DNA of 64,000 nt from Octopus vulgaris (lineage: Eukaryota), in contig OX597815.1 in NCBI GenBank assembly GCA_951406725.2, forward strand, positions 106,764,001 through 106,828,000, read 5' to 3'. The notes under the pieces are model-generated. The model saw only the letters and a list, made by a program, of their open reading frames with translations. It was not told where the DNA came from and searched no databases. The position numbers were made by a program, and so were the translations under genes. Positions 31,245 to 62,551 of the stretch are shown here, piece by piece. Each line of letters begins with the position of its first letter. Within the stretch, counting starts at the first letter, position 1.

Positions 31245-31307
<63 letters not shown>

Positions 31308-33944: not shown

Positions 33945-33982
33945 CTCACTAACACGAACCGCACGAAACCTTTAGGTATGAG
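33945..33982 (+). ncRNA. Decayed minimal hammerhead motif
   Basis: ctca ctaacac gaaccgcac GAAA cctttagg TA tgag. Stems I and III are intact; the CUGANGA box is mutated. Confidence 0.45.
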
Positions 33983-39257: not shown

Positions 39258-39362
39258 CAGGTGAGCACATAAGTGCAAAACAAGGTGCCACAACTGTCCG
39301 ACGAACGGGAACGTGAAACTCTGAGCAATAGCTTTGTGATAATTTTGCAGTTCTAATAAAAT
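39258..39362. mobile_element. Mini 'tail + inverted HHR' module, an older relative of 45570-48642
   Basis: aggtgagcacataagtgcaaaacaaggtg (tail end, minus) joined to ctgt ccgacga acg ggaa cgt GAAA ctctgag ca atag...taataaaatg then TA repeat. Confidence 0.75.
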
Positions 39363-39387
39363 GTGTATATATATATGTATATACTAT

Positions 39388-40050
39388 GCAGGCAGGTGGC
39401 AGGTTGGATCCTTAGATCTTTCAGGACCAGGAACAGAGACACAATGCTTCTGCTTTGGAAAACCTTTGTCCTTAGACTACTGCTCCTACCTGTGGTCCCC
39501 ACAGAGTGTAAAACTAATTGCAACTACACAAAGAAGATAGACTCAGTGAAACACATGGGATACTGGGACAATTTGAAGGAACCGGAATTCTACTCCCTGG
39601 AGAGGAGACGTGAGAGATATGCAGTGCTATACATATGGAAAATAATGGAGGGACTAGCTCCAAATTTCGAAATCCACATCTACAACAATCACCGAGCTGG
39701 ACGGCACTGCACAGTACCAAAGGTCGCATCTTCTCCATCGAGGATATGAACCCAGTATTGTAATAGCTTGGGATACTAGGGACCACAACTTTTTAATGCC
39801 CCATCACAGAACACCAGGGATCTGCAAGGTATAGACATGGAAGTCTTCAAAAAATGTCTAGACAGCTTTTCATTTGCAATACAGGATGAACACACATCGT
39901 AGCAGGAGGCACAAAGAAGAGCGGCAACGTCCAACTCGCTACTTCACCAGAAGTAATACTGGAAAAATCCTCGGATGCAGTAAGGGCGGTGCACCAGCAT
40001 GGCCTCAGCATCTGGCTGAAACCCATAAAAGAAATAAATAAAAAGAAATA
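39388..40050 (+). mobile_element. CR1-group LINE 3' portion
   Basis: GWILRSFRTR..DTMLLLWKTFV, YWDNLKE..YSLERRRERYAVLYIWKI. Ends ggcggtgcaccagcatggcctcagcatctggctgaaac. Confidence 0.88.
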
Positions 40051-40057
40051 TATATAA

Positions 40058-40410
40058 CGGGTCGACACTGCACAGTGCCAAATATTCCAGCAATACCATT
40101 ACGCTTCAGGCCCAGTTACTGCAAAAGCCTGGGTTTCAGGAGCCCACAGCATTTTAATGTTCTCCCAAAGAGTTGAGGGACATACACAAAGTGGATGTAA
40201 GTATTTTCAAATCAAAACAGGATCTCTTCCTATCGAGAGTCTCAGCTGAACCAACCTCGCGGCAGGAGGTGCAAATGAGGGTAGCGGCATCAAACTCCCT
40301 TATTTACCAAACACCACATATTAGAGGAGGCTCTCAATAATAACTGTGTAGCAAAACGGCAGTGCCCCTGCATGACAACAGCTTTGAGCTGAAACTAATA
40401 GAAGATAGAA
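40058..40410 (+). mobile_element. Second CR1-group LINE 3' end in tandem
   Basis: GRHCTVP...FKSKQDLFLSRVSAEPT...ASNSL, tail ggcagtgcccctgcatgacaacagctttgagctgaaac. A short duplicate of 39542-39620 follows at 40441-40519. Confidence 0.8.
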
Positions 40411-40519
40411 TATATATATATATATGTATGTATATAATTGTTCAGTGAAACACATGGGCTACTGGGACAATTTGAAGGAACTGGAATTCTACTCCCTGGA
40501 GAGGAGACGTGAGAGATAT

Positions 40520-40672
40520 TAATAACCACCTTTGTTTTACTCTTAGTTGAGAAAGTCGAAAAGACAGAAAGTGGTACTAACCATTATAAAATGCATTTCA
40601 TGACAAAATTATTTAAGCATTTTCTACTTTGTCTTTTTCTTTATACATATCAACTCGTATTTCACTTTTCAA
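40520..40672 (+). mobile_element. Decayed 3' end (HHR + tail) of the Neptune-type PLE family
   Basis: ttag TTGAGAA agtc gaaaa gaca GAAA gtgg TA ctaa (40543-80). The tail aaaattatttaagcattttcta...atatcaactcgt matches 15545-15620. Confidence 0.75.
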
Positions 40673-40711
40673 CATTCTACACACACAGACACAGACACAG
40701 ACACAGACACA

Positions 40712-40808
<97 letters not shown>

Positions 40809-40865
40809 AGACACACACAGACACAGACACACAGACACACACACACACACACACACACATACATT

Positions 40866-40999
40866 GGCGCAGGAGTAGCTGTGTGGTAAGTAGCTTGCTT
40901 ACCAACCACATGGTTCCGTGTTCAGTCCCACTTGGGCAAGTGTCTTGTATATAAGCCTGGGGAGTGGATTTGGTAGACGGAAACTGAAAGAAGCTCGTC

Positions 41000-41061
<62 letters not shown>

Positions 41062-41310
41062 ATATGTGTATGTGTGTGTAAATTTGTGTGAGTATCTGTG
41101 TTTTTCCCCCATAATCGCTTGACAACCGACGTTGGTGTGTTTACGTCCCCGTAACCTAGCTGTTCGGTAAAAGAGACGATAGAATAAGTACTAGGCGTAC
41201 GAAGAATAACTCCTGGGGTCGATTTGTTCGACTAAAGGCAGTGCTCCAGCATGACCGCTGTCAAGTAACTGAAACAAATAGAAGAATAAAAGAATAAAAG
41301 AATAAAAATA
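40866..41310 (+). mobile_element. Full-length CORE-type SINE with internal (TA)n
   Basis: ggcgcaggagtagctgtgtggtaag head, ttgggcaagtgtc core, tail ggcagtgctccagcatgaccgctgtcaagtaactgaaac plus (aaagaata)n. Confidence 0.88.
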
Positions 41311-41639
41311 TATAGATGTATATACATATAGACAGAGAGTAGGAAAGTGATAAAAGATGAAGAGATGCAGACAAAATAATAGTGATGGTTAGACGAGAAA
41401 AAGTGATGGTTAATGTACGAGTAGAAGTTCTTGAATGAAAATATTTGGCAAAGGTTATGGAAAGATTTTTCAGAAGGCGGTGCTCCAGCATGGCCGCAGT
41501 CAAATGACTGAAACAAGTAAAAGAGTAAAAGAGTAAGGAAGGTATTTTAAGTTTCGACTCACGTATTTGTAGCATTTATTTGCATGTATTTACATGTGTA
41601 TATGCACTTATTACACGCTAAACTTCTGGTATGTTTTGT

Positions 41640-41960
41640 ATAATTTCACAGTGTCTTTAATGCCTTGTAGCCGTAGTATCCTAATGAACAGTATCTTTTT
41701 TGAATTTGTAAAGCCCGTCTTTTCATACTTGGTGCTGAGGCAATTAATTACGTATCCCAGCGTCACATGATTATAGATATAAATCTAAAGCTGTAGCCTT
41801 GGTGGATATACGGATATTTCTCATTAGTTCGATACAAATGCTTTATTCCCCACTAATATTTAAGGACTACATTGTGCAACCACTATTTTGAACACTATCC
41901 TTTCCTCCGTTCTAGAGTTCCAAATCAATATGTCTTATTTTGCTAGCATTTTATAAAGAT
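41640..41960 (-). mobile_element. Highly decayed RLE-type (R4/Dong-like) LINE C-terminus
   Basis: Weak colinearity with 43125-43470 (tccaaatcaatatgtc is the PDI.IW region; tacgtatcccag is LGYV). Confidence 0.5.
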
Positions 41961-42052
41961 CTTTACAGATTATATCCAGGGTTAGAACATGTATGTAAAT
42001 AAGTATGTATGCATCCATACATGTATGTGTGTGTGTGTGTATGTATGTATAT

Positions 42053-42998
42053 GTGCAGATTTGTATGTTTTGTTTTATGTATGTATTCTCATAGTTGTAT
42101 ATCTAGACATGCTCATATTTTACAGATTTTACAGATTTTTACAGTTCCAGTGATGAATTGGATCTGTAATCTTCGAATTAACTTTTTCTCCTTTCTGGTT
42201 TTGAGAAGCCTAATTTCTCAAGATTGCTATTTAGGCAGTGTGCCATATATTCCAGGGCCCCTAGAATTACAGGTATAAAACTGAACTTGTAAACTGAATA
42301 GAGTAACTGCAGATTTCTCTTTTTCACTGATCTTCGGCTTTATGTTAATATCTGCTGGGCAGCTAATTTCCACAACTGTACACAGTTTCTCTTCTTTATC
42401 TCAAATCATTATATCAGTCCTGCTTACATTTTATTGAGGTCTTCACTGGGACATTCCACCAATACTCCTTTTCATTAAGAGTGGCTATGGCTTCTACCAT
42501 ACTGTGGGTTCTTATTTCTTTGTCCTCGGGATTATCCTTCCGACGAATTTCATTATAGAGTGTCCTAGCTATGTCATGTCTCATCGGTAGATAATACTGC
42601 GAGGACATTTTCGGACAATTGCTTATGATATGGGTGATATCTTCGGTGTTAACTACAGAAAGTCTGCATCGGTTGTCACACATTTTACTGCTTTTTCTGC
42701 ATCTCTATCCCTTTTGTGCATCAGGTACTTGGTTGATATTTCCTGTTCCTGGATTGCAAACACATACCCTACAAAGTGGGAGTTGGTAGTAGTCCGGCTA
42801 TTGGTCCATAATAAACTGCTTTGAAAATCGATGTTACTATCATCTCGCAGCTTTCTACTAATATATCCATGCATAGTAATCTGCTCAAATAGGCTCATCC
42901 TTACATTTGATGATACGTTGCGGTAGACTTGTGCGACTTCTTTGGGCATGTCTTGTAGGTTGTCAGACAAAGAATGTTACTGAAGGACCTGCCTTCCA
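42053..42998 (-). mobile_element. R4/Dong-like (RLE) non-LTR retrotransposon 3' part, copy 1
   Basis: HGYI, AIQEQEISTK, CRL...EDITHIISNCPKMS (CCHC), RHD, YWWN, VEISCP, IPVILGALE. Flanked by (TATG)-type repeats. Confidence 0.88.
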
Positions 42999-43052
42999 AT
43001 GTATGTATGTATGTATGTATGTATGTATGTATGTATGTATGTATGTATGTAT

Positions 43053-43720
43053 GTGCAGATTTGTTTGTTTTATGTATGTATTCCCATGCATATAGTTACA
43101 TATCTAGATATGCTCATATATATTTAGATGATAAACTTCTGGAAAGTTTTACAGACTTTTACAGTTCCAGTGATGAATTGGATCTATAATCTTCGAATTA
43201 GCTTTCTCCTTTCTGGTTTTGAGAAGCCTAATTACTTAAGATTGGTATTTAGGCAGTGTGTTACATATCCCAGGTCCCCAATAATTGCAGGTATAAACCT
43301 GAGCTTGTAATCTGGATAGAGTAACTGCAGATTTCTCTCTAGCTCAGCATATGTGTTCTCTTTTTCATTGACCTTCAGCTTTATGTTAACATCCGCTGGG
43401 CAGCTAATTTACCCAACTGTGCACAGTTTCTCTTCTCTATCCCAAATCATTGTATCAGGTCTGTTGTGCTTACATTTTATGGAGGTCTTCACTGGTACAT
43501 TTTACCGGTATTCCTTTTCATTATGAGTGGCTATGGCTTCTACCATACTGTGGGTTCTTATTTCTTCGTCGGGATTATCTTTCCGACGGATTTCATTATA
43601 GAGTGTCCTAGCCACAACGTCATGTCTCATCGTTAGATAATACTGCGAGGACATTTTCGGACAACTGCTTATGATGTGGGTGATATCTTTAGTATGAACT
43701 CAACAAAGTTTGCATCGGTT
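43053..43720 (-). mobile_element. R4/Dong-like (RLE) retrotransposon 3' part, copy 2
   Basis: HIISSCPKM, RHDVVARTLYNEI, KHNRPDTMIWDREEK (PD-(D/E)xK), IIGDLGYV. 3' end aaatctgcac followed by (ATAC)n. Confidence 0.88.
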
Positions 43721-44715
43721 ATGCATGTATGTATTATGTGCGCATGTAAGTATGTATGTATCAATGTATGTATGCATGTATGCCTATATACGCGTATGTA
43801 GGTATGTATGTATGCATGTATGCGTGCATGCACAAATGCATGTATACATATATGTATGCTTGTATGTATGTATGCATGTATTTATGCATGCATGTATATA
43901 TGTCTGTATGTATTCAAAAGTACATTTGAGTTTCTCCTTGCGTTTTAATATTGTTTTCGCAAATTCTCGCCATTCAAGCACCATCACCTAAGTTTGTTAT
44001 AAGTTTCGGTTTCCGGTTCACAGATAGAATAACAAGCTTCTTGGAATAATGGCATAAGATACCTACTTGCTGAAATACCAATTGAAATTGTTGGGCAGTA
44101 CAGGTGTAGATTTACCTTACGTGTAGTGGTTATTGCTTCAGTGCATATATTGCTAATATGCTGAATCTAACAGTAAAATAAATAGTTTTCTCTAATTGAT
44201 TTACGAGTGAACATTATATTTATGAAGAATTTACCATCTCTTGTGACTGCGCAGCACTCAGACAATACATCCATAACCTAAGATCCAACAATCTATTGAC
44301 AAACTATCTTGAAATAAAACTCAATAATGGCATAAATATATGCATGCATGCATACATACATTTACATAATACATACATACATACATACATACATACATAA
44401 TACATACATACATACAAACATACATACATACATACAAACATACATACATACATACATTCATATAAACATACATACATACATACAAACAAACATACATACA
44501 TACATACATACATACATACATACATACATACACGTGAGTGCGTGCACAGAGCCACACACAAACATACGCACATCTGAAAAAATTAATAGAAATAGCTCTT
44601 CTGATCATTTTTCCGCTTTAATAATTAGGTGTTTATAAATAATATACATTCATACATACATACATATATATATATATATGTATATATGTATATACATATA
44701 TGTATATTTGTGAAT

Positions 44716-44766
<51 letters not shown>

Positions 44767-45286
44767 CATATACTTATACATATACACAAACCAAAGCACA
44801 CAAACCTATACATGCATACACACACACACAAACACACGCACACGCACACACAGATTATGAGAGAGGAAAGTACAGTGATGATAGTGATGCGTCCTGATGA
44901 GAGAAAGCAATGGTTATTATAGAAGTTCTTCAGCTAGAATGTTCGGTAAAGGTTATGGAAAGATTTTCAGACGGAAGGAATTTGAAGTGAGTGTATGCGT
45001 ATGCCTTCCTTTGTGTATGTGTGGATGTGTATCATATTGTTTCTGTTGATATGGTTGTGTTATTGCATGTTACTCTCTCTCTTCTTCTCCGTCTCTATCT
45101 ATCAATCTTTTTGTTTATGTCATGGTAACATTGTGTTCATTTCTTTACTCACCTTGTTTGTTCTTGTGTTTAAGCATGATAACGTATCTAGGCACATAAG
45201 CCTGTTTGTATGTATATGAGTACGTAAGTAAGTATTCCTGTATGTAAGCACATATGCATATATGTTTGTATGCAGATATATACGTA

Positions 45287-45332
<46 letters not shown>

Positions 45333-45340
<8 letters not shown>

Positions 45341-45516
45341 TTAAGATTCAGTTGAATAAGGTACTTAACTTGATGCACCAATCCGGTATTATCCGCAAGG
45401 GTCAAAGTAAGGTGAATGAAAGCAAATAAGTAACAAGGATATCAAGGTATTAATGCAATACGGCCGTTTCAGGCCATATTGCATTAATACCTTGAGATAC
45501 TTGTTACTTATTTGCT

Positions 45517-45520
<4 letters not shown>
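45333..45520 (-). mobile_element. Tail + HHR 3' half + inverted copy (hairpin module) between two (TA)n runs
   Basis: gcaaataagtaacaaggatatcaaggtattaatgcaata pairs with tattgcattaataccttgagatacttgttacttatttgc around a loop that reads cct GAAA cggccg TA on the minus strand. Confidence 0.7.
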
Positions 45521-45571
<51 letters not shown>

Positions 45572-45668
45572 GGAGTAAACACATAAATGTGAAACAAGGT
45601 GGAAAAAAGAGTACTCAAATACCAGTGGTAGAGTAATATGCTTTATTTTAAGCAGCAGAAAATTCAAC

Positions 45669-45716
45669 AAAATCTGTTACTCTGAGTTTCTCGTTGCCGT
45701 TCATCAGACAGTTTTT
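45669..45716 (-). ncRNA. Minimal type I hammerhead (left-arm copy)
   Basis: Reverse complement of 48567-48614. Confidence 0.8.
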
Positions 45717-46720
45717 GCTAGAATGGAACATATATATTAATTCAATCTATACTCTTACAAACGCTACACCTTTAAAAAGAAATGGACTTGTTTGATTGGC
45801 CCTTTAGAAAAAACGGTCAATCTTCGAGCGATAAACAAAAAGGTCAAAAATATATGTATATATATATAAAAAACTTATAAAAATTATAAAATCCGAGGAA
45901 AAAACCGAGGAAAAAACCTATTGCCGTTAATGAAGACAGTACAAATTAATGCATAGAAATTAAACCTGTTATAAATACTGCAATACATATTTATATTAAA
46001 ATCCACATATATATATCAACATACACAAAAGGATGCGCGTAAACGCCATACATACATATACAGACGTATGAATATGAATCTAAATTATACACATAAAAGC
46101 ATGTGTACATATATTCACGCAAACCGTCTCGCACGCAAGCTAAAATTCATCTATGTAGCAATTCTCATATACTGAGCAAGGAGGGGGAACGAAAGAAAGG
46201 GAAAGAGAGAAAAAAGAAATGAAGGAGGGGTGGGGAAAACTTGTAGCGATATTATTGGCATCTATAGAGGCCAGTATACATACACAAGTTTGAATTGATA
46301 CATATACATACCGTCGTGTGTATGCGTGCTTACGCACAAGCATACTTTCACTTACACATACACAGATACGCATGCTTACAAATATATATGCTTTGCTATA
46401 TACAAACTTATATAAACATTCTAAATTTGACAACATTGCTTTTTTTAAAAAAAACATTGCTTTTAAAAAATGGGTGCATTAATAAAAATATATACGAAAG
46501 ACATATAAAATAAAATATAACATCCTATTTTGGGTCATTTATAAATAATCAAGGTAATATAAATAATCAAGGTAATCTTATGCAATACAATAACATGAAA
46601 ACAAAGTTTGTAGGTTTTTCCTAATATATATGTAGAAACAATAAGACTTTGCTATATGTCCGTCGTAGCGCTCAAGAGTCAAAATCAAAATCAAAAAAAT
46701 CAAAATACAAAATATATACT

Positions 46721-47068
46721 CTATCCATATGGTATATTTATATTCGACATTTTAAATTTAGCCGTGTGCCTACATAAGTTCATTAATTCACTTCTTTGAT
46801 TCAAAGAATTATTGTCTTTGAATAATATGTGCATTTTTTCTAATAAGCAGAGCCTGCACTTGAAATTATATTTGTAAGCTCCATGCCTGTATGGTGTCGC
46901 CCTGTCCAGAATGCTCCATGTCACGTTGAAAGGTGGGGCTTCCTTTTCTTTTAGTTCCCAGACATATTTTGCTAGGCTGGTTTTCTTTCTGTTCTCTGGG
47001 TATTTAAAAGAATTCTTATGAGAATAAAATCTCGTTTTAAATGAATTTTCTGAAGCCCCTGTGTATGT
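46721..47068 (-). pseudogene. PLE GIY-YIG C-terminal half (left-arm copy)
   Basis: Mirror image of 47215-47562. Confidence 0.85.
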
Positions 47069-47214
47069 CGGAGCATTCTGGACAGGGCGACACCATTCAA
47101 AGAATTATTGTCTTTGAATAATATGTGCATTTTTTCTAATAAGCAGAGCCTGCACTTGAAATTATATTTGTAAGCTCCATGCCTGTATGGTGTCGCCCTG
47201 TCCAGAATGCTCCG

Positions 47215-47562
47215 ACATACACAGGGGCTTCAGAAAATTCATTTAAAACAAGATTTTATTCTCATAAGAATTCTTTTAAATACCCAGAGAACAGAAAGAA
47301 AACCAGCCTAGCAAAATATGTCTGGGAACTAAAAGAAAAGGAAGCCCCACCTTTCAACGTGACATGGAGCATTCTGGACAGGGCGACACCATACAGGCAT
47401 GGAGCTTACAAATATAATTTCAAGTGCAGGCTCTGCTTATTAGAAAAAATGCACATATTATTCAAAGACAATAATTCTTTGAATCAAAGAAGTGAATTAA
47501 TGAACTTATGTAGGCACACGGCTAAATTTAAAATGTCGAATATAAATATACCATATGGATAG
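47215..47562 (+). pseudogene. PLE GIY-YIG endonuclease C-terminal half, Naiad-like (clade tentative)
   Basis: YTG..FKTRFYSHKNSF..TSLAKYVWELK..WSIL..PY..CRLCLLEK..LNQRSEL..CRH. The first 12 codons of ORF 47179 come from an inverted fragment. Confidence 0.85.
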
Positions 47563-48566
47563 AGTATATATTTTGTATTTTGATTTTTTTGATTTTGATT
47601 TTGACTCTTGAGCGCTACGACGGACATATAGCAAAGTCTTATTGTTTCTACATATATATTAGGAAAAACCTACAAACTTTGTTTTCATGTTATTGTATTG
47701 CATAAGATTACCTTGATTATTTATATTACCTTGATTATTTATAAATGACCCAAAATAGGATGTTATATTTTATTTTATATGTCTTTCGTATATATTTTTA
47801 TTAATGCACCCATTTTTTAAAAGCAATGTTTTTTTTAAAAAAAGCAATGTTGTCAAATTTAGAATGTTTATATAAGTTTGTATATAGCAAAGCATATATA
47901 TTTGTAAGCATGCGTATCTGTGTATGTGTAAGTGAAAGTATGCTTGTGCGTAAGCACGCATACACACGACGGTATGTATATGTATCAATTCAAACTTGTG
48001 TATGTATACTGGCCTCTATAGATGCCAATAATATCGCTACAAGTTTTCCCCACCCCTCCTTCATTTCTTTTTTCTCTCTTTCCCTTTCTTTCGTTCCCCC
48101 TCCTTGCTCAGTATATGAGAATTGCTACATAGATGAATTTTAGCTTGCGTGCGAGACGGTTTGCGTGAATATATGTACACATGCTTTTATGTGTATAATT
48201 TAGATTCATATTCATACGTCTGTATATGTATGTATGGCGTTTACGCGCATCCTTTTGTGTATGTTGATATATATATGTGGATTTTAATATAAATATGTAT
48301 TGCAGTATTTATAACAGGTTTAATTTCTATGCATTAATTTGTACTGTCTTCATTAACGGCAATAGGTTTTTTCCTCGGTTTTTTCCTCGGATTTTATAAT
48401 TTTTATAAGTTTTTTATATATATATACATATATTTTTGACCTTTTTGTTTATCGCTCGAAGATTGACCGTTTTTTCTAAAGGGCCAATCAAACAAGTCCA
48501 TTTCTTTTTAAAGGTGTAGCGTTTGTAAGAGTATAGATTGAATTAATATATATGTTCCATTCTAGC

Positions 48567-48614
48567 AAAAACTGTCTGATGAACGGCAACGAGAAACTCA
48601 GAGTAACAGATTTT
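48567..48614 (+). ncRNA. Minimal type I hammerhead (right-arm copy)
   Basis: aaaactgt CTGATGA a cg gcaa cg a GAAA ctcagag TA acagatttt. The 10.1-11.1 pair is A/A here but A-U in the relative at 39305-14. Confidence 0.8.
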
Positions 48615-48641
48615 GTTGAATTTTCTGCTGCTTAAAATAAA

Positions 48642-48691
<50 letters not shown>

Positions 48692-48964
48692 TGATAGGGA
48701 GAGGGGACGACAAAATGTTCACACAAAATTGGGGATATTTATGTTTCTAATTTTTTTTTTGTTAGGTGTTCGTTTGTATGTCCAAAGCTGTAGATATGTA
48801 AGTTCCTTAACTTATTTTGAGGGAAATTCAAATTACTCACAGAAGATAGTAGATCTTCCAGTTTTTTTACAGTTGTTTTTTTTTTCAGTTGTCCTGCTGG
48901 GTTAGCTGCTGATAGGGCAGAGCAGCGAAGAACACACGTCCGAGCTGGGCGACGTGTCCAGCAA

Positions 48965-50050
48965 CTATAAAAATCGGATGTCCACCAAAGCTGCTGAGGA
49001 TCATTACGTCTTTCCATGATGATATGCAAGGCACCATACAGCACAATGGTTCAACATCAGCCGCCTTCCAAATAAAAAAACGGGGTAAAGCAAGGTTGTG
49101 TCCTCGCTCCTACATTATTTGGTATTTTCTTCTCGCTCTTGCTCTCACATGCCTTTCAGACATCAGATGATGGAGTGTTTCTGCACAGTAGAAGTGACGG
49201 GAAACTGTCCAATCTCTCGCGCCTGCGTGCCAAGACCAAAATCAGAAACGTCCTGATCAAGGAGATGCTATTTGCTGATGATGCCGCTCTGGTATCACAC
49301 ACAGAAGAAGCTCTCCAAAGGCTCATTAACTGTTTTGAGTAAGCATGTAACGACTTTGGCTTAGCTATCAGCCTTAAGAAGACCAACATCATGGGTCAGG
49401 CTACATCGGACATCCCAAACATACATATTGGAGACCACAGATTACAGGAGGTGGAGAAGTTTACCTATCTTGGCTCTACCGTCACCTACAACCTATCCTT
49501 TGACGCTGAGCTCAATATACGCATTGGTAAGGCAGCTGCTGCGATGGCCCAACTCTCCAAACGGGCATGGGACAACAATAAGCTGACCAAGACTACGAAA
49601 ATGAAGATCTACCAGGCATGTATACTTAGCACTCTACTGTATGGAAGTGAGACTTGGACGCTATACACACGCCAAGAGCGTCGCCTAAACATCTTTCACC
49701 TGCGCTGCCTCCGGAAAATCCTCCGCATCAAATGGCAGAATCATATCCCCAACAAAGATGTCCTCAAGCAAGAAGGTATACCAAGCATGTTTGCACTCCT
49801 CACACAAAGACGTATGAGATGGCTTGGGCATGTTAGCCGTATGAAAGATGGCAGAATCCCCAAGGACATACTCTACGGAGAGCTTGCTAGGGGTACTAGG
49901 TCTGTGGGTAGACCGTTCTTACGTTACAAGGATGTTTGCAAAAGGGACATGAAGGCCTGCAACATCAATATTAGCAGTTGGGAAGCAATTGCCAGCAACC
50001 GTGGATATGATATTGGCGACGTACCGTAAAAGAGGGAATACAAAGGAGTG

Positions 50051-50092
<42 letters not shown>

Positions 50093-50306
50093 AATGGAAA
50101 GACAGGAAAGGACGTCAACAAGGAACTATGACACTACAACCAGCCAGGAACAGTCTTCGCTACATTTGAGGTACCTGCCAGAGGGAGTGTTTGTCTAGGA
50201 TAGGACTACACAGCCACAGCAGGAAATGTAACAGGACATGAAATGTAAAAACCGGACTGGACTATTTTATGCGCAACTCCATTGTCTCCCGAGACAAAAA
50301 GGATGC

Positions 50307-50315
<9 letters not shown>
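48965..50315 (+). mobile_element. RTE (BovB-like) LINE, 5'-truncated, several stops and frameshifts
   Basis: KIGCPPKL, GVKQGCVLAPTLF, LFADD, FTYLGS, LLYGSETW, RWLGHVSRM, PKDILYGEL. 3' stem-loop tgtctcccgagaca followed by (CAA)n. Confidence 0.95.
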
Positions 50316-50388
<73 letters not shown>

Positions 50389-51239
50389 AATATATGTATG
50401 TATGTCTGTATGTATGTATTAATGTGTGTATATGTGTGTATATATGTGTCTATAACTTAGTACAGAAGAAAAAACCAGAAGAAACTTGTATGTACGTATA
50501 TATGTATGAATAAAGGTATGCATGTACGTATGTTCCCCTTGTTCCATTTTACGAATTTCTCAGCAATGGAGGACCAGGTTTCTAACCCTCAAACAGGTCT
50601 CTTTCATAAGAATATTGATAATATCAACGAGTAGTCTTGTATGTATGCATGTGTGGATGTATGTATGTATGTAAGTATGTACATATATATGTATGTATCT
50701 ATTATGTAAGTATGTATGTATGTACGTATGTGTGTCCTGGGTATGACTTTAAACTGCACCCGGTTGCGGGGACTGGTTCAGGAGTTCTCGGTTTTGAACA
50801 GTATGGAACCAACTCTTAGTTACTATTGCTTCTAGGGCTACTCTGACCCGGAGTATTAGCACCTGCCAGGCTCCCAGAAATAGGTTAACTAGTGTATGCG
50901 ATGACAATCCAACTGAGCGCGAGGATGTAGAAATACCCTTAGTTGGTGTTAATGTGCGCAGTAAAACCACCGGAGGTAAGGTACTCTAGCTTTTATTAAG
51001 CCACCCTTTTTGAAGAGGGACACTGATGTAAAATCTGCGGTATAATGTGATTACTGATCATTTCACTTCAGCCTTTCATGAGGTAGTAGTTACAGAGACC
51101 TAGAGAGTGGTACACGTGTTGTATAAGCGTTTATCATTATGATCCAATTATGTCCAAATGTCTCTTTATGGTGACCTCATTCGTTATTAAGTATTTACTG
51201 AATGACCGTTGGTGATGGAGGGGTGGCGACATATGCAGA

Positions 51240-51415
51240 TCTAAGTGTGCAGTAAGTCACGAATTTCATGTCACCTCTGCTTAAAAGCATGCAGGTCTGT
51301 AACGGGACTAAATGGTCATCTGAAAGGCCATGGAAAGAAAGTCAGAAATGCCATCGACAGCGAGGAAGTACAAGAAGACGGGAATCACCTGCGTAGATGG
51401 AGCAATCATCATGTT
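51240..51415 (+). mobile_element. RTE-type LINE extreme 3' end
   Basis: C2H2-like CHLCLKACRSVTGLNGHLKGH then a short UTR ending caatcatcat. Confidence 0.55.
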
Positions 51416-51571
51416 TTTCGGTCTGCATGTATAGATGTGCGTATATGTATATCCATACCTATGCCTTTATGTAAACATAGATGTTGTTACATGTGTCGAT
51501 TGTGTGTTTGGACTAGTGTATGCGTACACATTCCTTTATTTAAATATTTACATGTATGTATATGTACTAAG

Positions 51572-51895
51572 TGAAAGCACATGGCTCAGTGATAACGGCG
51601 TCGGGCTTACATTAGTGAGGTTATGAGTTCGATTCCCGGACCGGGCTGTGTGTTTATTCTTGAGCAAGACGCTTTATTTCACATTACTACAGTTCACTCA
51701 GCTGTAGAAATGAGTCACAGCATCACTGGCGACAAGCTGGATTAGTTAGCCTTTGCCTTTCCCTTGGACGACATCGGTGGCGCGGAGAGAGGAGACTGAT
51801 ATGCATGGGCAACTGCAGGTCTTCAACAAAACAACGGTGCCCGAACTTGGAGGGGAACTTTCTAGGTGCAATCCCATGACTTTTTATCCGTCATA
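51572..51895 (+). mobile_element. tRNA-derived SINE (third family)
   Basis: tggctcagtg A box, gagttcgattcc B box, cttgagcaagacgctttatttcac core. The 3' part matches 14318-14470. Confidence 0.8.
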
Positions 51896-51949
51896 GGTAC
51901 TTATTACATGTTAAACTTCTGAAATGTTTTACGTATCTTCACAATGCTT

Positions 51950-53290
51950 TTAATAGTGTGTAGCTGTAATTCCCCAATTAGTCGTGTCCTTTCTGGTTTC
52001 GTGAATGCCAGCTTCTCAAGATTGGCCGTTTGTCCAACACAGATTACTTTGGTTATCAGTGTTACTGTTACTTTGCTGCTTTCTGACATTCTGCTGATAT
52101 ACATACTCTTAGTGACCTGTTCCAGTAGAGTTGTGCTTCTTCTCTTGGTATGTATCCATGAATATCAATTGGGGAATACTTACTGCGGAGTTCCTTTCCG
52201 ACTCTCGTGAGGTTATTTGCCTCATTTATGTAGGCATATAATTCCACCTATTGGGGTTAGTAAATGTTGTTGAAGACTGTTTGAATCGATGTAAGCTCCT
52301 GCCACCTTGTTTTTGATTTAAGTAGAGTCGGTCTACGGATATCATTTTTGTAATTTCTTTTCACCATACTGTATCCTGCTTAAACCCCTTTTCCTCACTC
52401 CAGATTTTTCTCCAGAATTCATCCATATCTTCCTGGGAACAATCCTCTGTCACACTTATTGATTATGGCCTCATATCTTTATAAACTGCTGACTGGCATC
52501 GATTAAATTTCTTGTTGATTTTTTTCCTCCTCGCTACTGTCCTTTGTCGAAGCTTTTCACTAGCAGCATTTAATTTATACTCAAGTGTATTCAATTTTTC
52601 CCTTTCTATTTTATTGTCTCGCTTTGTTGGCAGAGAGTGTAGTTATTTATGTTTGCATGTATTAGTAACGCTACATAACATAGTTTTCAGTCCATCAACG
52701 ATCTTTTTTATTTTGCCAAATCCATCATGGCACATTTTTAATGTTTTTACCTTTCTTTGACTCTTCGGTATCTTTAAGATACTAGTTTGCAGTTGCTTGG
52801 ACGGCATATAAACAAACATTAATTTGCCAAAAATGAAGAGACATTACACTGCTGTAAATCTCTTTAAAAACCTCGCTAAGAATACACCTCAGCTGCTTCA
52901 CTGACAGAATGTTGTGAACTGTCAGGGAATATGGTGTAGCAGTAGGGTGGTCAGCATATCTGTGTGTAATACAGTGGCAGTAGGAACCAGATTTGTTGCG
53001 ACACACTGTATCAACGTTGTTGACGGTATGTCTGTCTAAGAAAGTGGCCTACCTGCTGTTATTTGTGTTTTCTCCATACTTTTGGGAATAATATTACACT
53101 CATCATTTTTCGGACTAAAATTAGAATAATCGAATTCTTGGATACAATAAATGTCGCTTGTTGGCGTAATTATTTTGCCATAAAAGAATTTATTTCTTGG
53201 TGTAATTTGTCCCAATATGTTGGCCATATGAGTTTTCTCATATGGCCAACATATTAGGACAAAAGGATCTTGCTTTCCCATCATGAGAGA
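51950..53290 (-). mobile_element. Decayed LINE ORF2 N-terminal region (APE endonuclease-like)
   Basis: SDIYCIQE motif and AGRP. Non-repetitive, A-rich minus strand with many stops. Clade not determined. Confidence 0.45.
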
Positions 53291-53610
53291 AGACTTAGAT
53301 TATGGGTGTGGATTACAGATTTGTGAGCCCTTGAGACTTAAAAATTAAATTTCAATTATTCTAGTTTAATATTATAAAAGGGTATTCTTTAATTAAGTGG
53401 GGGCTTAAACAATAAATTTAAATCTAATTACTACGCATAATATATAGCAATTTTGCTTCTAGAATGTTTATCTTATCACCAAAACAATTCTATATCTACG
53501 CTTTCACTTCAGCTATAACAAAAGTCCGTATGGCCCATAAGGGAGTTCCTACCTGGTCGCTTGACTTGTTAGAAATAGCTGCCAAATCTTCCTCTAATAA
53601 TACTCTACGG

Positions 53611-53879
53611 CAGTGGTTCCCAAAGTTTTTCAGGCTGCCGCCCCCTTCATACCCGGACCACGTTCCTAGCACTTCAGCCACTACAAACATTGACCACTTT
53701 CTGAAGCAAATTCAAACAACTGTATTTCGTAAGTGAAATTAACCAATTACTTGGGGTTCTTATTTTACATCCATTGACCCCTTTGGCGTCCCCATTATCG
53801 TCCCACTTTTCTTCAACGCCTCCTCTGGATCTCTCCATCGCCCTCATGGGGGCAGTACTACTCACTTTGGGAACCACCG
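53611..53879. mobile_element. hAT-superfamily MITE with 16-bp TIRs and 8-bp TSD
   Basis: TIRs cagtggttcccaaagt / actttgggaaccaccg. TSD ctctacgg (53603-10) / ctctacag (53880-87). Confidence 0.9.
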
Positions 53880-53923
53880 CTCTACAGTTTTAATTAAGAA
53901 ATAAGGTGGGTTTAGATTCTCTG

Positions 53924-53988
<65 letters not shown>

Positions 53989-54399
53989 CAAGAAAACGTA
54001 TGTGTATATATTAATCAAGTCTTACGGCTCTAAAACGTCTGAAGCAATTTTGACCTCACCAAATATATATGCTTCACTCCGAGAGTTATTCAATCATTTC
54101 GCAGAATTGAAATCGTCAGTAACAATACGTGCGCGCGCACCACGTGTGTGCGCGTGTGTTTGTACGTGCGTGCGTATTTTTTGTTTCTGAATCAAGTTTT
54201 ACTTACTCAGTGGTAAAGATGTAAAGGAAATATATTTCCGTTTAACCCAAAATAAGTCTTGCTCTTTTCCTTATGTACATAATGTATGTTTGTATATATC
54301 ACCGAATAGTTAAGAAGTACACTTTAATCTTAGGTTCGATATCACTAGCTGACATCATGAAACAGCTGATGATGATGTCATTGAATTATTTACAAAACC

Positions 54400-55400
54400 T
54401 TATATATATCGCCATTTCAGAGAAAGGGAATGTGCGAAAGAGCAATAATTATAGAACTGTTGCCCTTACATCTCATGTAAGCAAAATTATTCACAACTGG
54501 CTTGAACTAATTTCGGAAAGGAAATTGCCTGCAGAAGTTTGTTTTAAGAAAGGAATGGAAATAAGAAACAAAATTGCAAATCTGTGATGAATAACGGAAG
54601 CATCTAGGAAGAAGTGCAAGTAGCTTGTGCATGCTTCATCGATTAAAGCAAAACTTTTGTGTAAAATATTCAACGATAGTCGTGGATGAGAGGAATTGAT
54701 GTGCCGAAGCATTTAGTCCTGATATGAAACCGTTGTACGGTACAAAAAGTTACAGTAAGTTACATAATCCGAAAATACTGGATAGTTTACAGTCAAGGAA
54801 AGGATTAGACAAGGTTGTATACTTACCCCTAAATTTTTCAACTGGTCCTGTGGAAATGCAATAAACCATGACTGGATGTAGTGGAAGGAGTTAATATTCA
54901 AATAATAAGACAAACAATAAGTTACCTGAAATACGCATTTGACTCAACCATCTTGACAGAAGATGAAGGTTTGAGAAGAATGTAGGAAAAGATAGATGAA
55001 AGTACAAAGGTTTTCACTAAAGTTATGTCAACTTCATGCTAAAAGGAATATAAGAGTGCAGTTCAGATGGTGGAAATAATAGATAAGTTTGCTTTTCTTT
55101 AGCTCTAGGCTGGAAGAAGTGGAAAGTGTTCAAATTAAATTAAACGAAGAGCTGCCATGTTGGGATTACAGACAATAATGAATGATTAAGAAATGGGCAA
55201 AGAACAAAAGAGAGAGTTAAAATATAAAGTGGGCAATTAACGAGACGAAAAGAAAATTGAAGCATCAAAAGTGATTTTAGAGAAGGATATTGTTCTCAAT
55301 ATCATGTTGGAAAGAACAAAGAGAGTGTTACAGTAGTAGGGGAAAACTGGCAGTACTTGGGAAACAATTGTAATTAACTTCCTTCATATGGTTATATTTG
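54400..55400 (+). mobile_element. Ancient decayed RTE-clade RT
   Basis: KGN...NYRTVALTSHVSKI, CFID, RQGCILTP remnants with many stops. Confidence 0.7.
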
Positions 55401-56175
55401 CACCAGTTTAAGCAGAACACTGACTGCATTAATCTTGAGGAGGGTCTACAAATGCTATGCGCACAGTCATTTATGTCAGACCAAAATAATAATAACAAAA
55501 ACGACCAATATTCGAATGCTTTAAAAAATTCCAGTTACATATTTTTCGTCATCTAACGTAGGTGTTCTCGTTTTCAGAGATGACGACCTAGTGCTAAAAA
55601 TCTTTAGCGATACAATTGCATTTTGCTTAGAACTTTTCATATACTTATTTCCATGCTGTCACATAAGTACTAGTGATGTTAGCTTATAGTTGGACAAATT
55701 TGATATCATTTTCAATCTTTCCCAGATTAATAAATTGTTTGCTTTTCTTGCATTCACTTACTGCTATCTTACATTATTATCTTAATTACTATTTTATTGA
55801 CATTTATATATAATCCATGCCTTCAAATTGTTTTTATGATCCTACAGAATCTATTCAGGAATTCTTTTATCGTGCCAAAGTTTAATATTATATACTTATA
55901 TATTGCGCATTTTGCACATCCTACAATGTTCACTCAGTTTCATGGCACGTTCGACCAATACAAATACGAATTGCATTATACTTCTGCATAATATATGTGT
56001 GTGTATGTGTTTGTGTGTGTGTGTGTGTGTATGTGTGTGAGTGTGTGTTTATACAGACATCTATCCCTCTGTATGTGTGGTGTATGTCCGTCCGTACGTA
56101 CGCATGCACGTATGTCTATATGTATGAATGTATGCATGTGTATTAAGTACATTAATATTTGTTTTCATGTCAAGT

Positions 56176-56223
<48 letters not shown>

Positions 56224-56285
56224 AATTCAATTCAACATCAAAAAGAAGGATTACTCAATACTTTTTAGCAGTGTACATTTTTATT

Positions 56286-56585
56286 AACTTTCACAAGAGA
56301 AAGATTGACAGTGACTTTCGAACTTTCAGTTTCTTCGCCGCCGTCACATTGTGATTTTGTTTGGTTCTTCCTGTCTTTATACAGTTGTGATAGAAAACCA
56401 TAACTTGGCATGAAAACATAATTGAAACAAGAAAGGATGCAGTAATATCCTATATACTCCTCTATAAAGAATATACTGAAACCCACCTAGAAACAATATC
56501 TGAAAATACGAAAATACAACTGCGCTGATAAAGGCGAGCAAACTGAAACTTCGAAGTTACTGTCAACCATTACCTTGTAAAAGTA
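56286..56585. mobile_element. Outward-facing inverted pair of decayed HHR + tail modules (MITE-like appearance)
   Basis: Right: ctgataa ag..ct GAAA cttcgaag TT actgtc. Left (minus): acaat gtgacgg..ct gaaa gttcgaaag TC actgtc. About 50 bp of imperfect inverted homology. Confidence 0.6.
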
Positions 56586-56720
56586 AATATATATAATACA
56601 TACATATTATGTGCATACATGTGTGTGTGCGTGACAATGTATGTGTGCGAATATACATATACATAAATACATATATACATACATAATACATATATGTATA
56701 TACATACATACTTACATACA

Positions 56721-56773
<53 letters not shown>

Positions 56774-56984
56774 CAGATATTCTCTGTATACAATACACTT
56801 CGTAGTGCTCGAGAGATTTAAACTTGAGCAGGTTGAGGAGTAAACGTAATGATAAGCAAGTTAGGCAAGTCGATATACAAAAAGTATTAAATAGATTTAA
56901 TACATTTAATATAATTGTATTAAATGTATTTAATATTTTGTGTATATGGACTTGCATAACTTGCTTATTCTTAGAAATATTCCT

Positions 56985-57250
56985 TTCAAAATCCTTCCTA
57001 AATGCCTGAGAGACCTGCACGATCTGGATATGGTTTTCTTTAAAACTAAACTCGTTCTCTTCTTGTCAAGGATTCCAGATGAACCTACCTCTCAGCAGAA
57101 AACACAGATGCAGGCGTCGGCGTCGAACTCTCATGTTGACCAAGTGCCACGTATCAGAGGTGGTTTCACATACTAGTGTGACACAGTCAACGGTGGTGCC
57201 CCGGCATGGCCGCAGCTTTCGGGCTGAAACATTTTTAAGGATTTAAGGAT
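56985..57250 (+). mobile_element. CR1-group LINE 3' end
   Basis: LPKCLRDLH..FFKTKL..FLSRIPDEP..ASNS, then ggtggtgccccggcatggccgcagctttcgggctgaaac. Confidence 0.85.
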
Positions 57251-57649
57251 ATATATATATGTGTGTGTATGTGTGTGTGTATGTGTGTGTGTGATTGTAT
57301 ATATATATGTGTGTGTGTGTAAATATGGATATACATATACATGCTCATACACGTACACATACACACACACGAAATATATATTATATATTATCTGCTAGAT
57401 TAAGTATAGTGGAATATAAGATATTCAGTAGTCCTACCGTGAAATTTGCATATTCCACTATGCCTAATCTGCTGGAAAATATAGCCGTTATTAACAAAGA
57501 AATTCAATACTTTTAGAAATAGTAAATGTATGCTTAATTATTCAGGCGAGAAGTACTAACCAACGTCTGTTACAAATGATACATATCTATCCGGTAGACA
57601 AAAATATAGTGTATCTCTTCTTAGTAATTCCATTAACATCAATAGAATG

Positions 57650-58640
57650 AATAAAATCCTTTATTGCAACAAACTCAGTAGTACGTGCAACTGTAGGAGT
57701 CATGATAAATGCCCCGTAAATAACCAATGTCTGAGAAATAAGTTAATATGTAAATTTTCCACTAAAACACCCAGTAACGTCTGTTATTATATAGGCGCCA
57801 TCCAACTGAGGTCGACTTTGTTTTTCATACTTTCGGGGTCGATAAAGTAAGTACCAGTTGAGCACTGGAGTCGAAGTAATCGACTTACCCTCTCCCCGAA
57901 ATTTCTGACCTTGTGCTAAAATTTGAAACCACAATTACATGTGAGTTACAGCTTCCAAATTCAAGACCATATTACGTAACCATGTTCACTACTCTAAGTA
58001 CGAATGAAGAGAACAAAGTACTTCACCGGCTAAGTTCATCAAGAAGAAAAATATAGACTACTTAATTTCGTAGTCAGTTTTAGGTTGTGCTCTTCAACAC
58101 AGAGGTAGGAGTAGTAGCTGTAATTTTTGCTCGGTAATTTTAATTTAATCAGTCAACATAATGAGTATCAATCCGTTTCTTACACTTATTTAATAAAACA
58201 TTCCTAAAAATTCACAATAAAATTCCACATAGCTGACAAATTTATTTTGATTCAATCTATAATAATGCTAGTGTTCTTGATGACCTCATGACCTACCAGG
58301 GATCGAAGGGTTAACGGGTTTTTACAAAATCAAAGAAAGTGATCTGATATGTCCGTTATCTACAATGTCTATCCACTGAAATATCTTGGATAGGGTGGAT
58401 ACACGCTTATAAATTTTTTACTAGAATATTCTGCAACCTATCATCTTTCAATATATTTATTGGAAATTCTCAAAATAAATCAAAGTATTTATAACAGATC
58501 TGATGAAGTGGATTATTGTTTGTATTTATATAAATTGTATATGTTCAAACCAACGTGTAGATGGGTGACATGGTTCTAGTAGCTATCGAAACGATGAAAC
58601 GATCGCAACCATTTAGTTGATGCATAACACCATCATCTTT
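57650..58640 (+). mobile_element. Old Naiad-like PLE EN remnant interrupted by a SINE (57805-57935), with a decayed HHR at 58570-58612
   Basis: CNCR..KCPVNNQCL..YYIG, resuming after the SINE as KFKT..NH..STS..CNFC. Downstream atggt...atcg aaa cgat GAAA cgatcg ca accat. Confidence 0.65.
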
Positions 58641-58747
58641 TGTTTGTTTACATAATTCACTCGTTTTTCCCTGGTTTGTTTATGTATTTCATGTTATTTG
58701 CACCGTTGGTGATGTCCTTTACCCATATATGCATATATATATATATA

Positions 58748-58904
58748 CCGGAGTAAACACATAAATGTGAAACAAGGTGGAAAAAAGAGTACTCAAATAC
58801 CAGTGGTAGAGTAATATGCTTTATTTTAAGCAGCAGAAAATTTTGTTGAACAGATTTTGTTGAATTTTTAATATATATGTTCCATTCTAGCTGCTTAAAA
58901 TAAA

Positions 58905-58905
<1 letters not shown>
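58748..58905. mobile_element. 158-bp scrambled mini-derivative with the same two termini as 45570-48642
   Basis: The left ~95 bp match 45570 onward (ccggagtaaacac...cagcagaaaatt). The right end gctgcttaaaataaag|(TA)n is identical to 48627-48642. Confidence 0.9.
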
Positions 58906-60840: not shown

Positions 60841-60847
60841 CTTCGAG

Positions 60848-60878
<31 letters not shown>

Positions 60879-61096
60879 TATTGAGTGAGAGAGCAGCACA
60901 CGCAATCGAAATGAGGCTGGGTTACAAATATACGAAGCCCAACATGACTACCAGTCTGATAAGTGTACACCAGGCACATGCACCACAACCATATATGCGA
61001 AACATGTGACCTCATATTGAAATAACCGGCGCATGACATTGCAAGTGGTGCCCAGTTAGAATTTTCTAGCTAGCCCATCCCACTTAATTATTTCAA

Positions 61097-61181
<85 letters not shown>

Positions 61182-61414
61182 GATGATGATGATAACAGCA
61201 ACAACAACAATAATAATCATCATCATCATCATTGTTCGACCGTGGTCGAGACTTTCATAGTCTTTTCAAATGGCTAATAATATGTGCGCGCGCCACTACT
61301 ACTACTACTAATAATAATGATGATGATGATTTATTAATTATTAGCGAATGTCAACGAAGAGAATATACATATGCGTGTATAGAGATGAGAGAGTGAGAGA
61401 GAAAGATATATATA

Positions 61415-61497
<83 letters not shown>

Positions 61498-61973: not shown

Positions 61974-62061
<88 letters not shown>

Positions 62062-62443: not shown

Positions 62444-62516
<73 letters not shown>

Positions 62517-62551
62517 AAAAAACAGAAGTATAGATAAATAGATAGATAAAT

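Follow-up and report, generated by a model that had tools for sequence, protein, structure and literature searches.

At three loci in the window, a 64,000-nucleotide stretch of Octopus vulgaris DNA (contig OX597815.1, positions 106,764,001 to 106,828,000), Hydra-clade Penelope-like elements (PLEs) have inserted into (TA)n. The insertions are probably products of twin priming at fixed sites, in which reverse transcription would start just 5' of duplicated hairpins. All three, at 39258–39362, 45570–48642 and 58748–58905, are 5'-truncated inverted copies with a one-sided tail, and are flanked on both sides by TA or TA-rich tracts. The asymmetric layout described in the initial annotation, in which a tail in minus orientation is followed by an internal change of strand and a common short end, is borne out at each locus by alignment of the arms.

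Architecture of the insertions

The 3-kb unit is composed as follows, with signed positions counted from the hammerhead cleavage site.

45570–48642: 3-kb tailed inverted unit, TA tracts abutting both ends (alignment and letters)
45570–45640, minus strand: one-sided tail of 71 nt, +38 to +108; long end at 45570
45611–45634, minus strand: copy 1 of the bulged Hydra 5' UTR stem-loop (pairing probability 0.98)
45669–45715, minus strand: minimal type I hammerhead motif of the left arm (pattern scan and manual reading)
45641–47069, minus strand: left arm body, with the 3' UTR and, at about 46721–47069, the GIY-YIG endonuclease (C-terminal half)
47070–47213: centre, 27-nt and 119-nt pieces of element region 47366–47484
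47214–47562, plus strand: endonuclease C-terminus, 5'-truncated, with the Hydra-type CxxC..E..N..CxH pattern
48568–48614, plus strand: minimal type I hammerhead motif of the right arm (pattern scan and manual reading; predicted cleavage after 48605)
48606–48642, plus strand: end of the short arm; short end at 48642, followed by (TA)n

The arms at 45641–47096 and 47187–48642 are inverted copies with a single internal mismatch (47033/47250), the left arm being longer by the 71 nt of the tail. Both contain the junction 47214/47366, and they meet with a 2-nt overlap. Given the predicted cleavage after 48605, the short end lies at +37 and the long end at +108; the distance of about 35 nt first proposed between cleavage site and short end is therefore about 37 nt as measured, and the short end does stop 71 nt before the tail end. 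Read by hand, the hammerhead at 48568–48614 contains the core, stem I, minimal stems II and III and the cleavage triplet, and its predicted minimum-energy fold differs from the active form. The window-family hammerhead was not detected by Rfam, which returned for the whole window only microsatellite-driven miRNA models, all below their thresholds. The near-perfect arms, together with a central junction that is not among the joints listed from public sequencing runs, might suggest an assembly or library fold-back artefact with ends shared by chance, but this is very unlikely: the flanks lie outside the palindrome, one site distinguishes the two arms, and the ends match both the 58748 copy and a family-wide junction recovered from four runs.

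The two smaller insertions are composed of the following arms.

58748–58842, minus strand: tail arm (+108 to +14), identical to 45570–45664, stem-loop at 58789–58812
58840–58905, plus strand: short arm of four pieces (+5 to +15, 0 to +19, −62 to −39, +22 to +37), ending at the short end
39258–39289, minus strand: diverged tail arm, only about +108 to +77
39287–39362, plus strand: diverged short arm, about −39 to +37, running from the edge of hammerhead stem I as far as the short end, without overlap with the tail arm

The tail arm at 58748 is 95 nt long, and the last base of this insertion is the same element base as 48642. At 39258, none of 2000 shuffles scored as well as either arm, and an internal deletion separates the arms; no target duplication is readable. 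Since this copy is a diverged relative whose ribozyme core is mutated, its end can be mapped only within a few nt, and the original assignment of all three insertions to one family is loose. The 1-kb flanks of the three loci gave no between-locus match at E<1e-3 and are alike only in microsatellite, which rules out segmental duplication as the origin of the three loci.

Further tailed units occur elsewhere in the window.

6514–6792: mirror-image tailed inverted unit, candidate PLE, between TA tracts
12302–12450: tail arm 12311–12352 and non-overlapping short arm 12356–12441; other family
19758–19960: tail arm, then flip at the hammerhead 5' edge; family of 12311 and 13660
45334–45519: 96-nt inverted arms and 87-nt one-sided tail; other family; TA tract common with the 3-kb unit
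56222–56589: inverted arms, degenerate hammerhead, left-side tail; distant relative

The same layout had been proposed for five such places in unrelated families. As single copies, it is present at 6514–6792, 12311–12441, 45334–45519 and 56222–56589; at 19758 the inversion is recognisable, the short end being unmappable. The 56222–56589 unit, whose left flank is CA, shows weak kinship with the main family (reached by 2 of 2000 shuffles). The 6514–6792 unit has a tail of about 48 nt, and inspection for a hammerhead found none. At 12311, 9-nt target duplications (12302–12310 and 12442–12450) enclose the whole inverted unit, a single duplication around inverted arms that lack internal sequence; a homologous empty site lies at about 14050–14090.

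Two priming events, as the annotation had suggested, are supported by these arms, which do not overlap at 39258 and 12311, while the short arm at 58748 contains sequence missing from its tail arm. A competing route would begin with a single priming at the long end, followed by fold-back or template switching on the nascent cDNA, with an endonuclease nick at the element's own AT-rich site producing the short end, akin to the “EN-mediated resolution” of PMC8557442. The short-end site is indeed AT-rich, the two arms of the 3-kb unit form a 99.9% palindrome and have one junction and rare alleles in common, and self-priming has been proposed for PLE palindromes (PMC3846280). Nevertheless, this route is quite improbable. 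It is largely refuted for the non-overlapping cases, where the tail arm does not include the short arm (that at 58748 includes only a part of it), and it survives for large palindromes. Even within the 3-kb unit, it is the short-end arm and not the tail arm that extends deeper into the centre (119 versus 27 nt), such that the fold-back route needs three switches. The non-overlapping arms at 39258 and 12311 thus rule out a simple fold-back and point to a process like L1 twin priming, except that the second site is fixed.

Identity of the element

The coding remnant in the window is the last 115 aa of the endonuclease, and the window does not contain the reverse transcriptase (RT). A Pfam search of this remnant returned no families. 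Its best match is a 713-aa protein (54% identity, E 2.6e-35), aligned at the C-terminus of that protein, in which an RT-like YRDD motif can be read by eye. The residues C72, C75, E78, N91, C100 and H102 are invariant in the endonuclease alignment and form the Hydra-clade pattern; the Hydra clade, C-terminal EN+ PLEs with a (TA)n target, is described with the same CxxC and CxH around conserved E and N (PMC8557442). The closest full-length protein has RWR, DKT and CxCX5C, read by eye in regions outside the window, and relatives from related loci have RWK. The layout of the window hammerhead is that of the Hydra hammerheads in File S2 of PMC8557442. The hammerhead itself differs from the listed Hydra-1_Obim, which indicates another family. 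A pattern search of viral contigs gave 62 pattern matches, of which none was confirmed.

Positions of the two ends

The recurrence expected of the short-end TA junction was found in all four public runs examined, each from a different study (30, 79, 40 and 4 contigs), as read from contigs in which the orientation of the copies, inverted or not, is not visible. Among the 24 of 900 loose-end rows examined, non-TA rows of equal size occur at 45647–45648. In one coral-type family, whose hairpins lie at +43 and +105, the end of 13 of 14 copies falls at +32 to +39 (10 copies) or +100 to +103 (3 copies) and one copy reads through, with about 11 of the ends being distinct. A second family has two of nine ends off-site (+15 and +73), and three alignments are too diverged for clean mapping. 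Six inverted pairs were recovered from related loci, of which three are clearly long plus short, two are compatible with this pairing and one is short plus short; the last (L005, 2713/6444) was discounted, as its flanks are duplicated as well.

In full-length relatives, both ends fall within the 5' UTR, before the ORF begins. This location bears on the earlier proposal that the short end is a transcript end or poly(A) site, a reading in which the long end would belong to a longer isoform. At all three window loci an AATAAA hexamer does stand immediately before the short end. However, the short end lies only 1–3 nt behind it, whereas RNA 3' ends usually lie 10–30 nt behind such a hexamer, which counts against a poly(A) site. 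Furthermore, the junctions are without poly(A), and in relatives the hexamer is missing there and the sequence continues into the ORF. As an RNA 3' end, the short end is therefore most improbable.

A duplicated bulged stem-loop

The 5' UTR of related full-length Hydra elements contains two copies of a bulged stem-loop, 59–68 nt apart, at 12 of 17 ORF starts, where L007 and L025 are not full-length UTRs; none of 6000 shuffles carries two such motifs. In these elements the short ends lie just 5' of copy 1 and the long ends just 5' of copy 2, which places the putative start sites about 2–11 nt 5' of a conserved stem-loop. Motif 2 sits 30–64 nt ahead of the ATG. In 310 kb, 54 of 59 matches to the strict motif lie behind a hammerhead or before an ORF. 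Copy 1 of the window family begins 7 nt 3' of the short end and has a 3-nt bulge, and its outer stem is ACTC/GAGT where that of relatives is GCTC/GAGC, a compensatory change. As copy 2 would lie beyond the long end, only copy 1 is visible for this family.

A plain 6-pair hairpin without a bulge was considered first and displayed little covariation (76 of 500 shuffles). With the bulged form, tried second, 36 of 37 distinct motifs have a complementary first inner pair (CG 18, UA 16, GC 2), against a shuffled mean of 24.6 and none of 10000 shuffles, although the inner stem was proposed after inspection of the same sequences and the shuffle tests ignore relatedness. This complementarity arises only with a 2-nt bulge. 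Covariation was found in 21 cells changed on both sides (0 of 500 shuffles). The counts for the plain hairpin, the inner pair and these cells all include row L025_2 of alignment A2, which is off its family's motif 2 position, the true one being in L024. The duplicated hairpin is also visible in published Hydra consensi; by eye, the Hydra-1_Obim consensus is without a clean motif. The other tailed families of the window (6514, 12311, 45334 and 30915) lack the stem-loop, which is thus clade-specific at best. No description of a duplicated stem-loop was found in the PLE papers searched.

Short ends often lie in AT-rich patches resembling the TA target, and annealing or nicking could accordingly help to set the ends. 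Taken further, the two primings might start wherever AT-rich RNA patches pair with the nicked TA primer, with the hairpins serving translation control, packaging or ribozyme folding. In the window family, as in family A, the element goes on with ATAT-like letters directly behind the short end, and the position of motif 2 before the ATG is a place where a translational element could sit. This explanation is unlikely, however, as the long ends are only weakly TA-like yet keep 36–47 nt to motif 1 in 10 copies. In addition, longer TA-like patches in the 3' UTR (45730, 46007, 46382 and 46622) do not occur as TA junctions among the 24 loose-end rows listed, rows near 45843–45883 left out, and the lizard element PAc starts at non-homologous RNA (PMC11167929).

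Proposed mechanism

The position, duplication and covariation of the hairpins are observed directly. The element's protein, probably as a dimer, may bind the hairpins and begin copying just upstream of each; a homodimer prediction covering the first 260 aa of the L065 ORF (score 0.01) speaks neither for nor against this. In fixed-site twin priming, the GIY-YIG endonuclease would nick both strands of the (TA)n target, as occurs in vitro in lizard PAc, and each 3'-OH would prime the RT at either of two start sites that lie internally in the RNA of the element, both downstream of an uncleaved hammerhead and upstream of the ORF start. One strand would take the proximal start and yield the short end. 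The other would take the distal start and yield the long end, its cDNA then including hairpin 1 and the spacer as the “tail”. Both cDNAs would stop variably, often near the other primer or on reaching the 5' edge of the hammerhead, and would be joined head-to-head by microhomology or template jumps, leaving a variable middle. The 3-kb palindrome could result from the same event on an RNA already holding a 5'-truncated copy joined to an inverted fragment. If each hairpin positions one RT, tail length likely equals hairpin spacing.

A more specific version is advanced tentatively, with slightly less than even confidence. The two-copy stem-loop would serve as a ruler, with one subunit of an RT-endonuclease dimer per copy, RT starting a few nt upstream, and one start per strand, such that the two nicked strands are primed by a single RNP in one concerted step. 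The tail would then be the spacer between two protein-binding sites, and the head-to-head insertion the normal product. A short, duplicated and covarying RNA element beside both ends invites a direct mutation experiment, and makes tail length predictable from sequence. If true, it would represent a minimal cis signal for internal priming by a telomerase-related RT, and would provide a boundary rule for curators of Hydra elements.

Comparison with known systems

The insertion unit of EN+ PLEs is known as a 5'-truncated inverted copy with a one-sided tail, a pLTR hammerhead and a microsatellite target (Craig 2021, PMC8557442; Arkhipova et al. 2013, PMC3846280), and the same truncated inverted copy, tail, hammerhead and target are found here. 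The published tail is 30–40 nt, in contrast to 71 nt here and a spacing of 59–68 nt in relatives. It has been put down to endonuclease resolution or self-priming, with no RNA motif named in the available portions of these papers (PMC8557442, PMC3846280), and the origin of the tail and inverted copies is treated as an open question (PMC8557442).

With PAc, a Poseidon element from Anolis, both strands are nicked and extended in vitro, and two internal RT starts bracket the tail (Frangieh 2024, PMC11167929). The RT needs RNA 3' of its two start sites, the target is AT-rich, uncleaved hammerhead RNA is a substrate and a dimer is predicted (PMC11167929). Thus, two RT starts and extension from both nicked strands are largely known from the lizard, and the additions here are the non-overlap argument and the duplicated hairpin. 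PAc belongs to a different clade; here both putative starts lie within the 5' UTR, each closely followed by one copy of the duplicated stem-loop. Start-site use by PAc displayed no strand difference in vitro (PMC11167929), which weakens the case for an obligate pairing of one long with one short end. In the available portions of that study, inverted insertions are left unexplained, one start per strand is not claimed and the later insertion steps are left unvalidated (PMC11167929).

In L1 twin or dual priming, both target nicks prime cDNA and an inverted pair results, in some cases accompanied by an internal deletion and a target duplication (Meyer et al. 2010, PMC2837659). There, the first priming is at poly(A) and the second site is variable, whereas here poly(A) is absent and both sites are fixed; the arms here can also overlap by more than 1 kb, as at 45570. 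The mechanism proposed for the window accordingly works like twin priming, but is not the L1 mechanism as defined.

Tailed inverted insertions in TA tracts

The asymmetric layout first annotated at 39258, 45570 and 58748, in which a one-sided tail is followed by an inversion and a fixed short end, is borne out by arm mapping at all three Hydra-clade Penelope-like element (PLE) insertions, with short ends at +37 or approximately +37 (signed positions are nt from the hammerhead cleavage site). The largest of these, a 3-kb unit, contains the following features:

45570-48642: inverted pair, arms 45641-47096 and 47187-48642, one internal position differing between the arms
48568-48614: minimal hammerhead, pattern read by hand, predicted cleavage after 48605

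The left arm of this unit carries 71 nt extra and (TA)n abuts both ends. Relative to the predicted cleavage site the short end lies at +37 and the long end at +108, in agreement with the annotated placement of the short end about 35 nt past cleavage and 71 nt short of the tail end. Rfam returned no match for the hammerhead at 48568-48614. The arms code for the last 115 aa of an endonuclease, with CxxC, E, N and CxH all invariant, as PMC8557442 describes for Hydra-clade elements. A profile-free protein search with this 115-aa end retrieved 3745 proteins at E <=0.001, the top match being 713 aa long and 54% identical.

The tail arm of 58748-58905 consists of 95 nt identical to the 3-kb unit, followed by four plus-strand pieces, the last stopping at +37. 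A diverged relative occupies 39258-39362; its tail arm covers about +108..+77 and its plus arm about -39 to +37, and each arm is matched in 0/2000 shuffles. Apart from microsatellite, nothing is shared between the three loci in their 1-kb flanks, which argues against segmental duplication of one event. The same layout had been assigned to five further loci; it held at four (6510, 12311, 45333 and 56286), and at 19758 the inversion was recovered while the short end could not be mapped.

Two different tailed inverted units (45334-45519 and 45570-48642) lie within one TA tract, which suggests that the same target was used repeatedly. At 45570, 48642, 58748, 58905 and several related loci, noted without a formal count, the flank starts with T (element, then TATA) at both ends where unambiguous, pointing to an A/T nick position on both strands of the TA tract.

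One priming event or two

If the cDNA that carries the tail folds back, the short arm it yields can only be one that is contained in the tail arm. The arms at 39258 and at 12311 do not overlap, and the short arm of 58748 holds -62..-39 and 0..+13, outside the tail arm; simple fold-back is thus ruled out at these three loci, and the two priming events suggested as one option in the initial annotation are supported. At 12311, 9-nt direct repeats bracket the whole inverted unit and an empty homologous site lies near 14070, which together indicate a single entry event via staggered nicks. Both arms of the 3-kb unit stop at the same base, adjoin an inverted fragment at one common junction and have in common alleles (e.g. 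46333, 46401, 46850) missing from nearly all other contigs; they therefore originate from a single template molecule or a single source locus. In the simplest reading, two cDNAs would have been copied 27 and 119 nt beyond the pre-existing junction and would have met in an overlap of 2 nt; a fold-back route is possible for this unit if three switches are allowed.

A duplicated bulged stem-loop in the 5' UTR

Related loci were drawn from public contigs, comprising five from one MAG in genome contigs and the best 80 of 136 from metagenome contigs. The MAG (CBDDTI01) is filed as a bacterium and carries animal Hydra-clade PLEs on five contigs (L001-L005), and thus contains host DNA. In full-length relatives the region past the hammerhead is 5' UTR, with the ATG approximately 140-180 nt beyond the cleavage site. 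Upstream of the ORF start a bulged stem-loop occurs twice in 12/17 cases, once in 3/17 (5'-truncated, contig-cut or mutated) and not at all in 2/17 (truncated next to the ATG); a second element copy in locus L012 has two motifs as well. The two-motif starts represent about eight sequence families with a copy spacing of 59-68 nt, and 0/6000 dinucleotide shuffles carry two motifs.

The motif is built of a GCTC/GAGC stem of 4 bp, a 3' bulge of 2 nt whose first base is U, and an inner stem that varies in sequence. When motifs were gathered by the outer stem alone (37 distinct), inner pairs 1, 2 and 3 proved complementary in 36, 31 and 26 of them (against shuffled means of 24.6, 15.7 and 14.6; 0/10000), and with other bulge sizes the first inner pair is complementary in just 2-12 of 37. 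Both-side changes occupy 21 cells of a 19-row alignment (0/500 shuffles); these shuffle controls take no account of relatedness, and the choice of inner stem followed inspection of the data. Of 59 strict matches in 310 kb, 54 are located downstream of a hammerhead-like pattern or upstream of the ORF, and two more are located 40-42 nt from a TA end.

Element ends lie beside these hairpins. In family A (reference L065), with hairpins at +43 and +105, 10 of 14 aligned copies stop at +32..+39, three at +100..+103 and one reads through, about 11 ends being distinct loci. Family D has hairpins at +53/55 and +114/116 and ends at +48..+51 or +104..+110; two ends fall away from these sites, at +73 and, at the insertion of another element, at +15, while three are so diverged that their mapping is poor. 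Locus L057 stops at the base immediately preceding hairpin 2 of L067. In the window tail, hairpin 1 (+44) is 7 nt away from the short end; A-U replaces its outer G-C pair and its bulge is 3 nt long. Six inverted pairs in related loci comprise three long plus short, two compatible with long plus short, and one short plus short with duplicated flanks.

Six Hydra consensi from File S7 of PMC8557442 were also inspected by eye. Hydra-1_Ajap starts 2 nt ahead of motif 1 and has motif 2; Hydra-1_Crog begins 6 nt ahead of a variant motif with C-G replacing a U-A pair; Hydra-2_Amil and Hydra-2_Ajap have motif 1 and about 25 nt at their ends; Hydra-1_Amil ends short; and no clean motif was seen in Hydra-1_Obim.

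End positions in public contigs

Contigs from four public runs, representing four studies and two organism labels, were aligned to 45556-47099. Among the 24 loose-end rows listed of 900, the sole internal place with TA is 45636, the short end extended by 5 nt of element sequence that resembles TA. The recurrent TA junction predicted for the short end is present in 4/4 runs (30, 79, 40 and 4 contigs), though contigs do not distinguish inverted copies from non-inverted ones. Rows at 45647-45648 equal those at 45636 in size and have no TA; one resembles a 2-nt indel variant. Their consensus (~+31; 45-55 contigs in each of three runs) is A-rich and of low agreement, pointing either to diverged subfamilies or to tail arms terminating shortly beyond the short start site.

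In 4/5 opposite-strand joints listed, the plus arm begins at -35 to -37, where stem I of the hammerhead has its 5' edge, and is joined to a tail arm that ends at +72, +39, +34 or +29. The 39258 junction is located at this edge as well, the full-length relatives L065 and L068 start there, and summed contig depth falls 3.1- to 5.9-fold there in 4/4 runs. The edge is a third preferred point, perhaps the RNA 5' end or an RT stop; the depth step could alternatively be caused by subfamily divergence.

Other repeats in the window

The near-perfect 227-nt palindrome at 30915-31249, absent from the initial annotation, lies between TA tracts and has the same layout, extending on one side by about 105 nt; neither hammerhead nor Hydra motif was found in it. 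An inverted pair of 117 nt at 56768-56968 has a left-hand tail in which, at 44 nt from the TA end, there is a GCTC..GAGCAC outer stem; this fails the strict bulged-motif test. At 5467-5960, an inverted pair of another repeat has a microsatellite and a 25-nt insert in its centre and a much longer right arm. Older palindromes at 33835-33993, 53206-53263 and 57384-57483 show neither clear tails nor flanking TA, and 60094-63316 is an inverted pair that has diverged. A direct duplication of 700 nt (42003-42674 and 43001-43720) spans 42003-43720, and sequence near 49000 (48900-49200) may be a LINE RT fragment, which it resembles. Finally, 13660-13870, 12311-12441 and 19758-19960 form a second family with a hammerhead-like core, TTGAAAA, that fits the U3-A8 variant reported from Schistosoma PLEs (PMC4209133).

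Proposed mechanism and relation to known elements

The Hydra-clade elements have two fixed ends, independent arms and a duplicated, covarying hairpin beside each end. For PAc, a lizard (Anolis) PLE of the Poseidon clade, PMC11167929 reports that in vitro both strands are nicked and extended, that two internal RT starts bracket the tail, that the RNA region 3' of the starts is required, and that ribozyme cleavage is not needed. A probable account is that each hairpin would position one RT, each nicked strand would take one start, and the resulting cDNAs would be joined head-to-head. The main rival shares the two primings and lets AT patches, in place of hairpins, set the start sites; we consider it unlikely. 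With the hairpin pair, the question of the PLE tail and inversion becomes open to direct test.

Neither the duplicated motif nor PLE twin priming was found to be described in the available portions of PMC11167929, PMC8557442, PMC3846280, PMC4209133, PMC2837659 and bioRxiv 10.64898/2026.07.22.740005, or in library literature, which mostly excludes subscription papers; a supplement text search gave 0 matches for 'stem-loop' and 'hairpin'. The inverted copy with a one-sided tail of 30-40 bp is already stated for PLEs in PMC8557442 and PMC3846280. The architecture and the two-start idea are largely published, and what was initially annotated is an established PLE product, for which part of the explanation is already in print.
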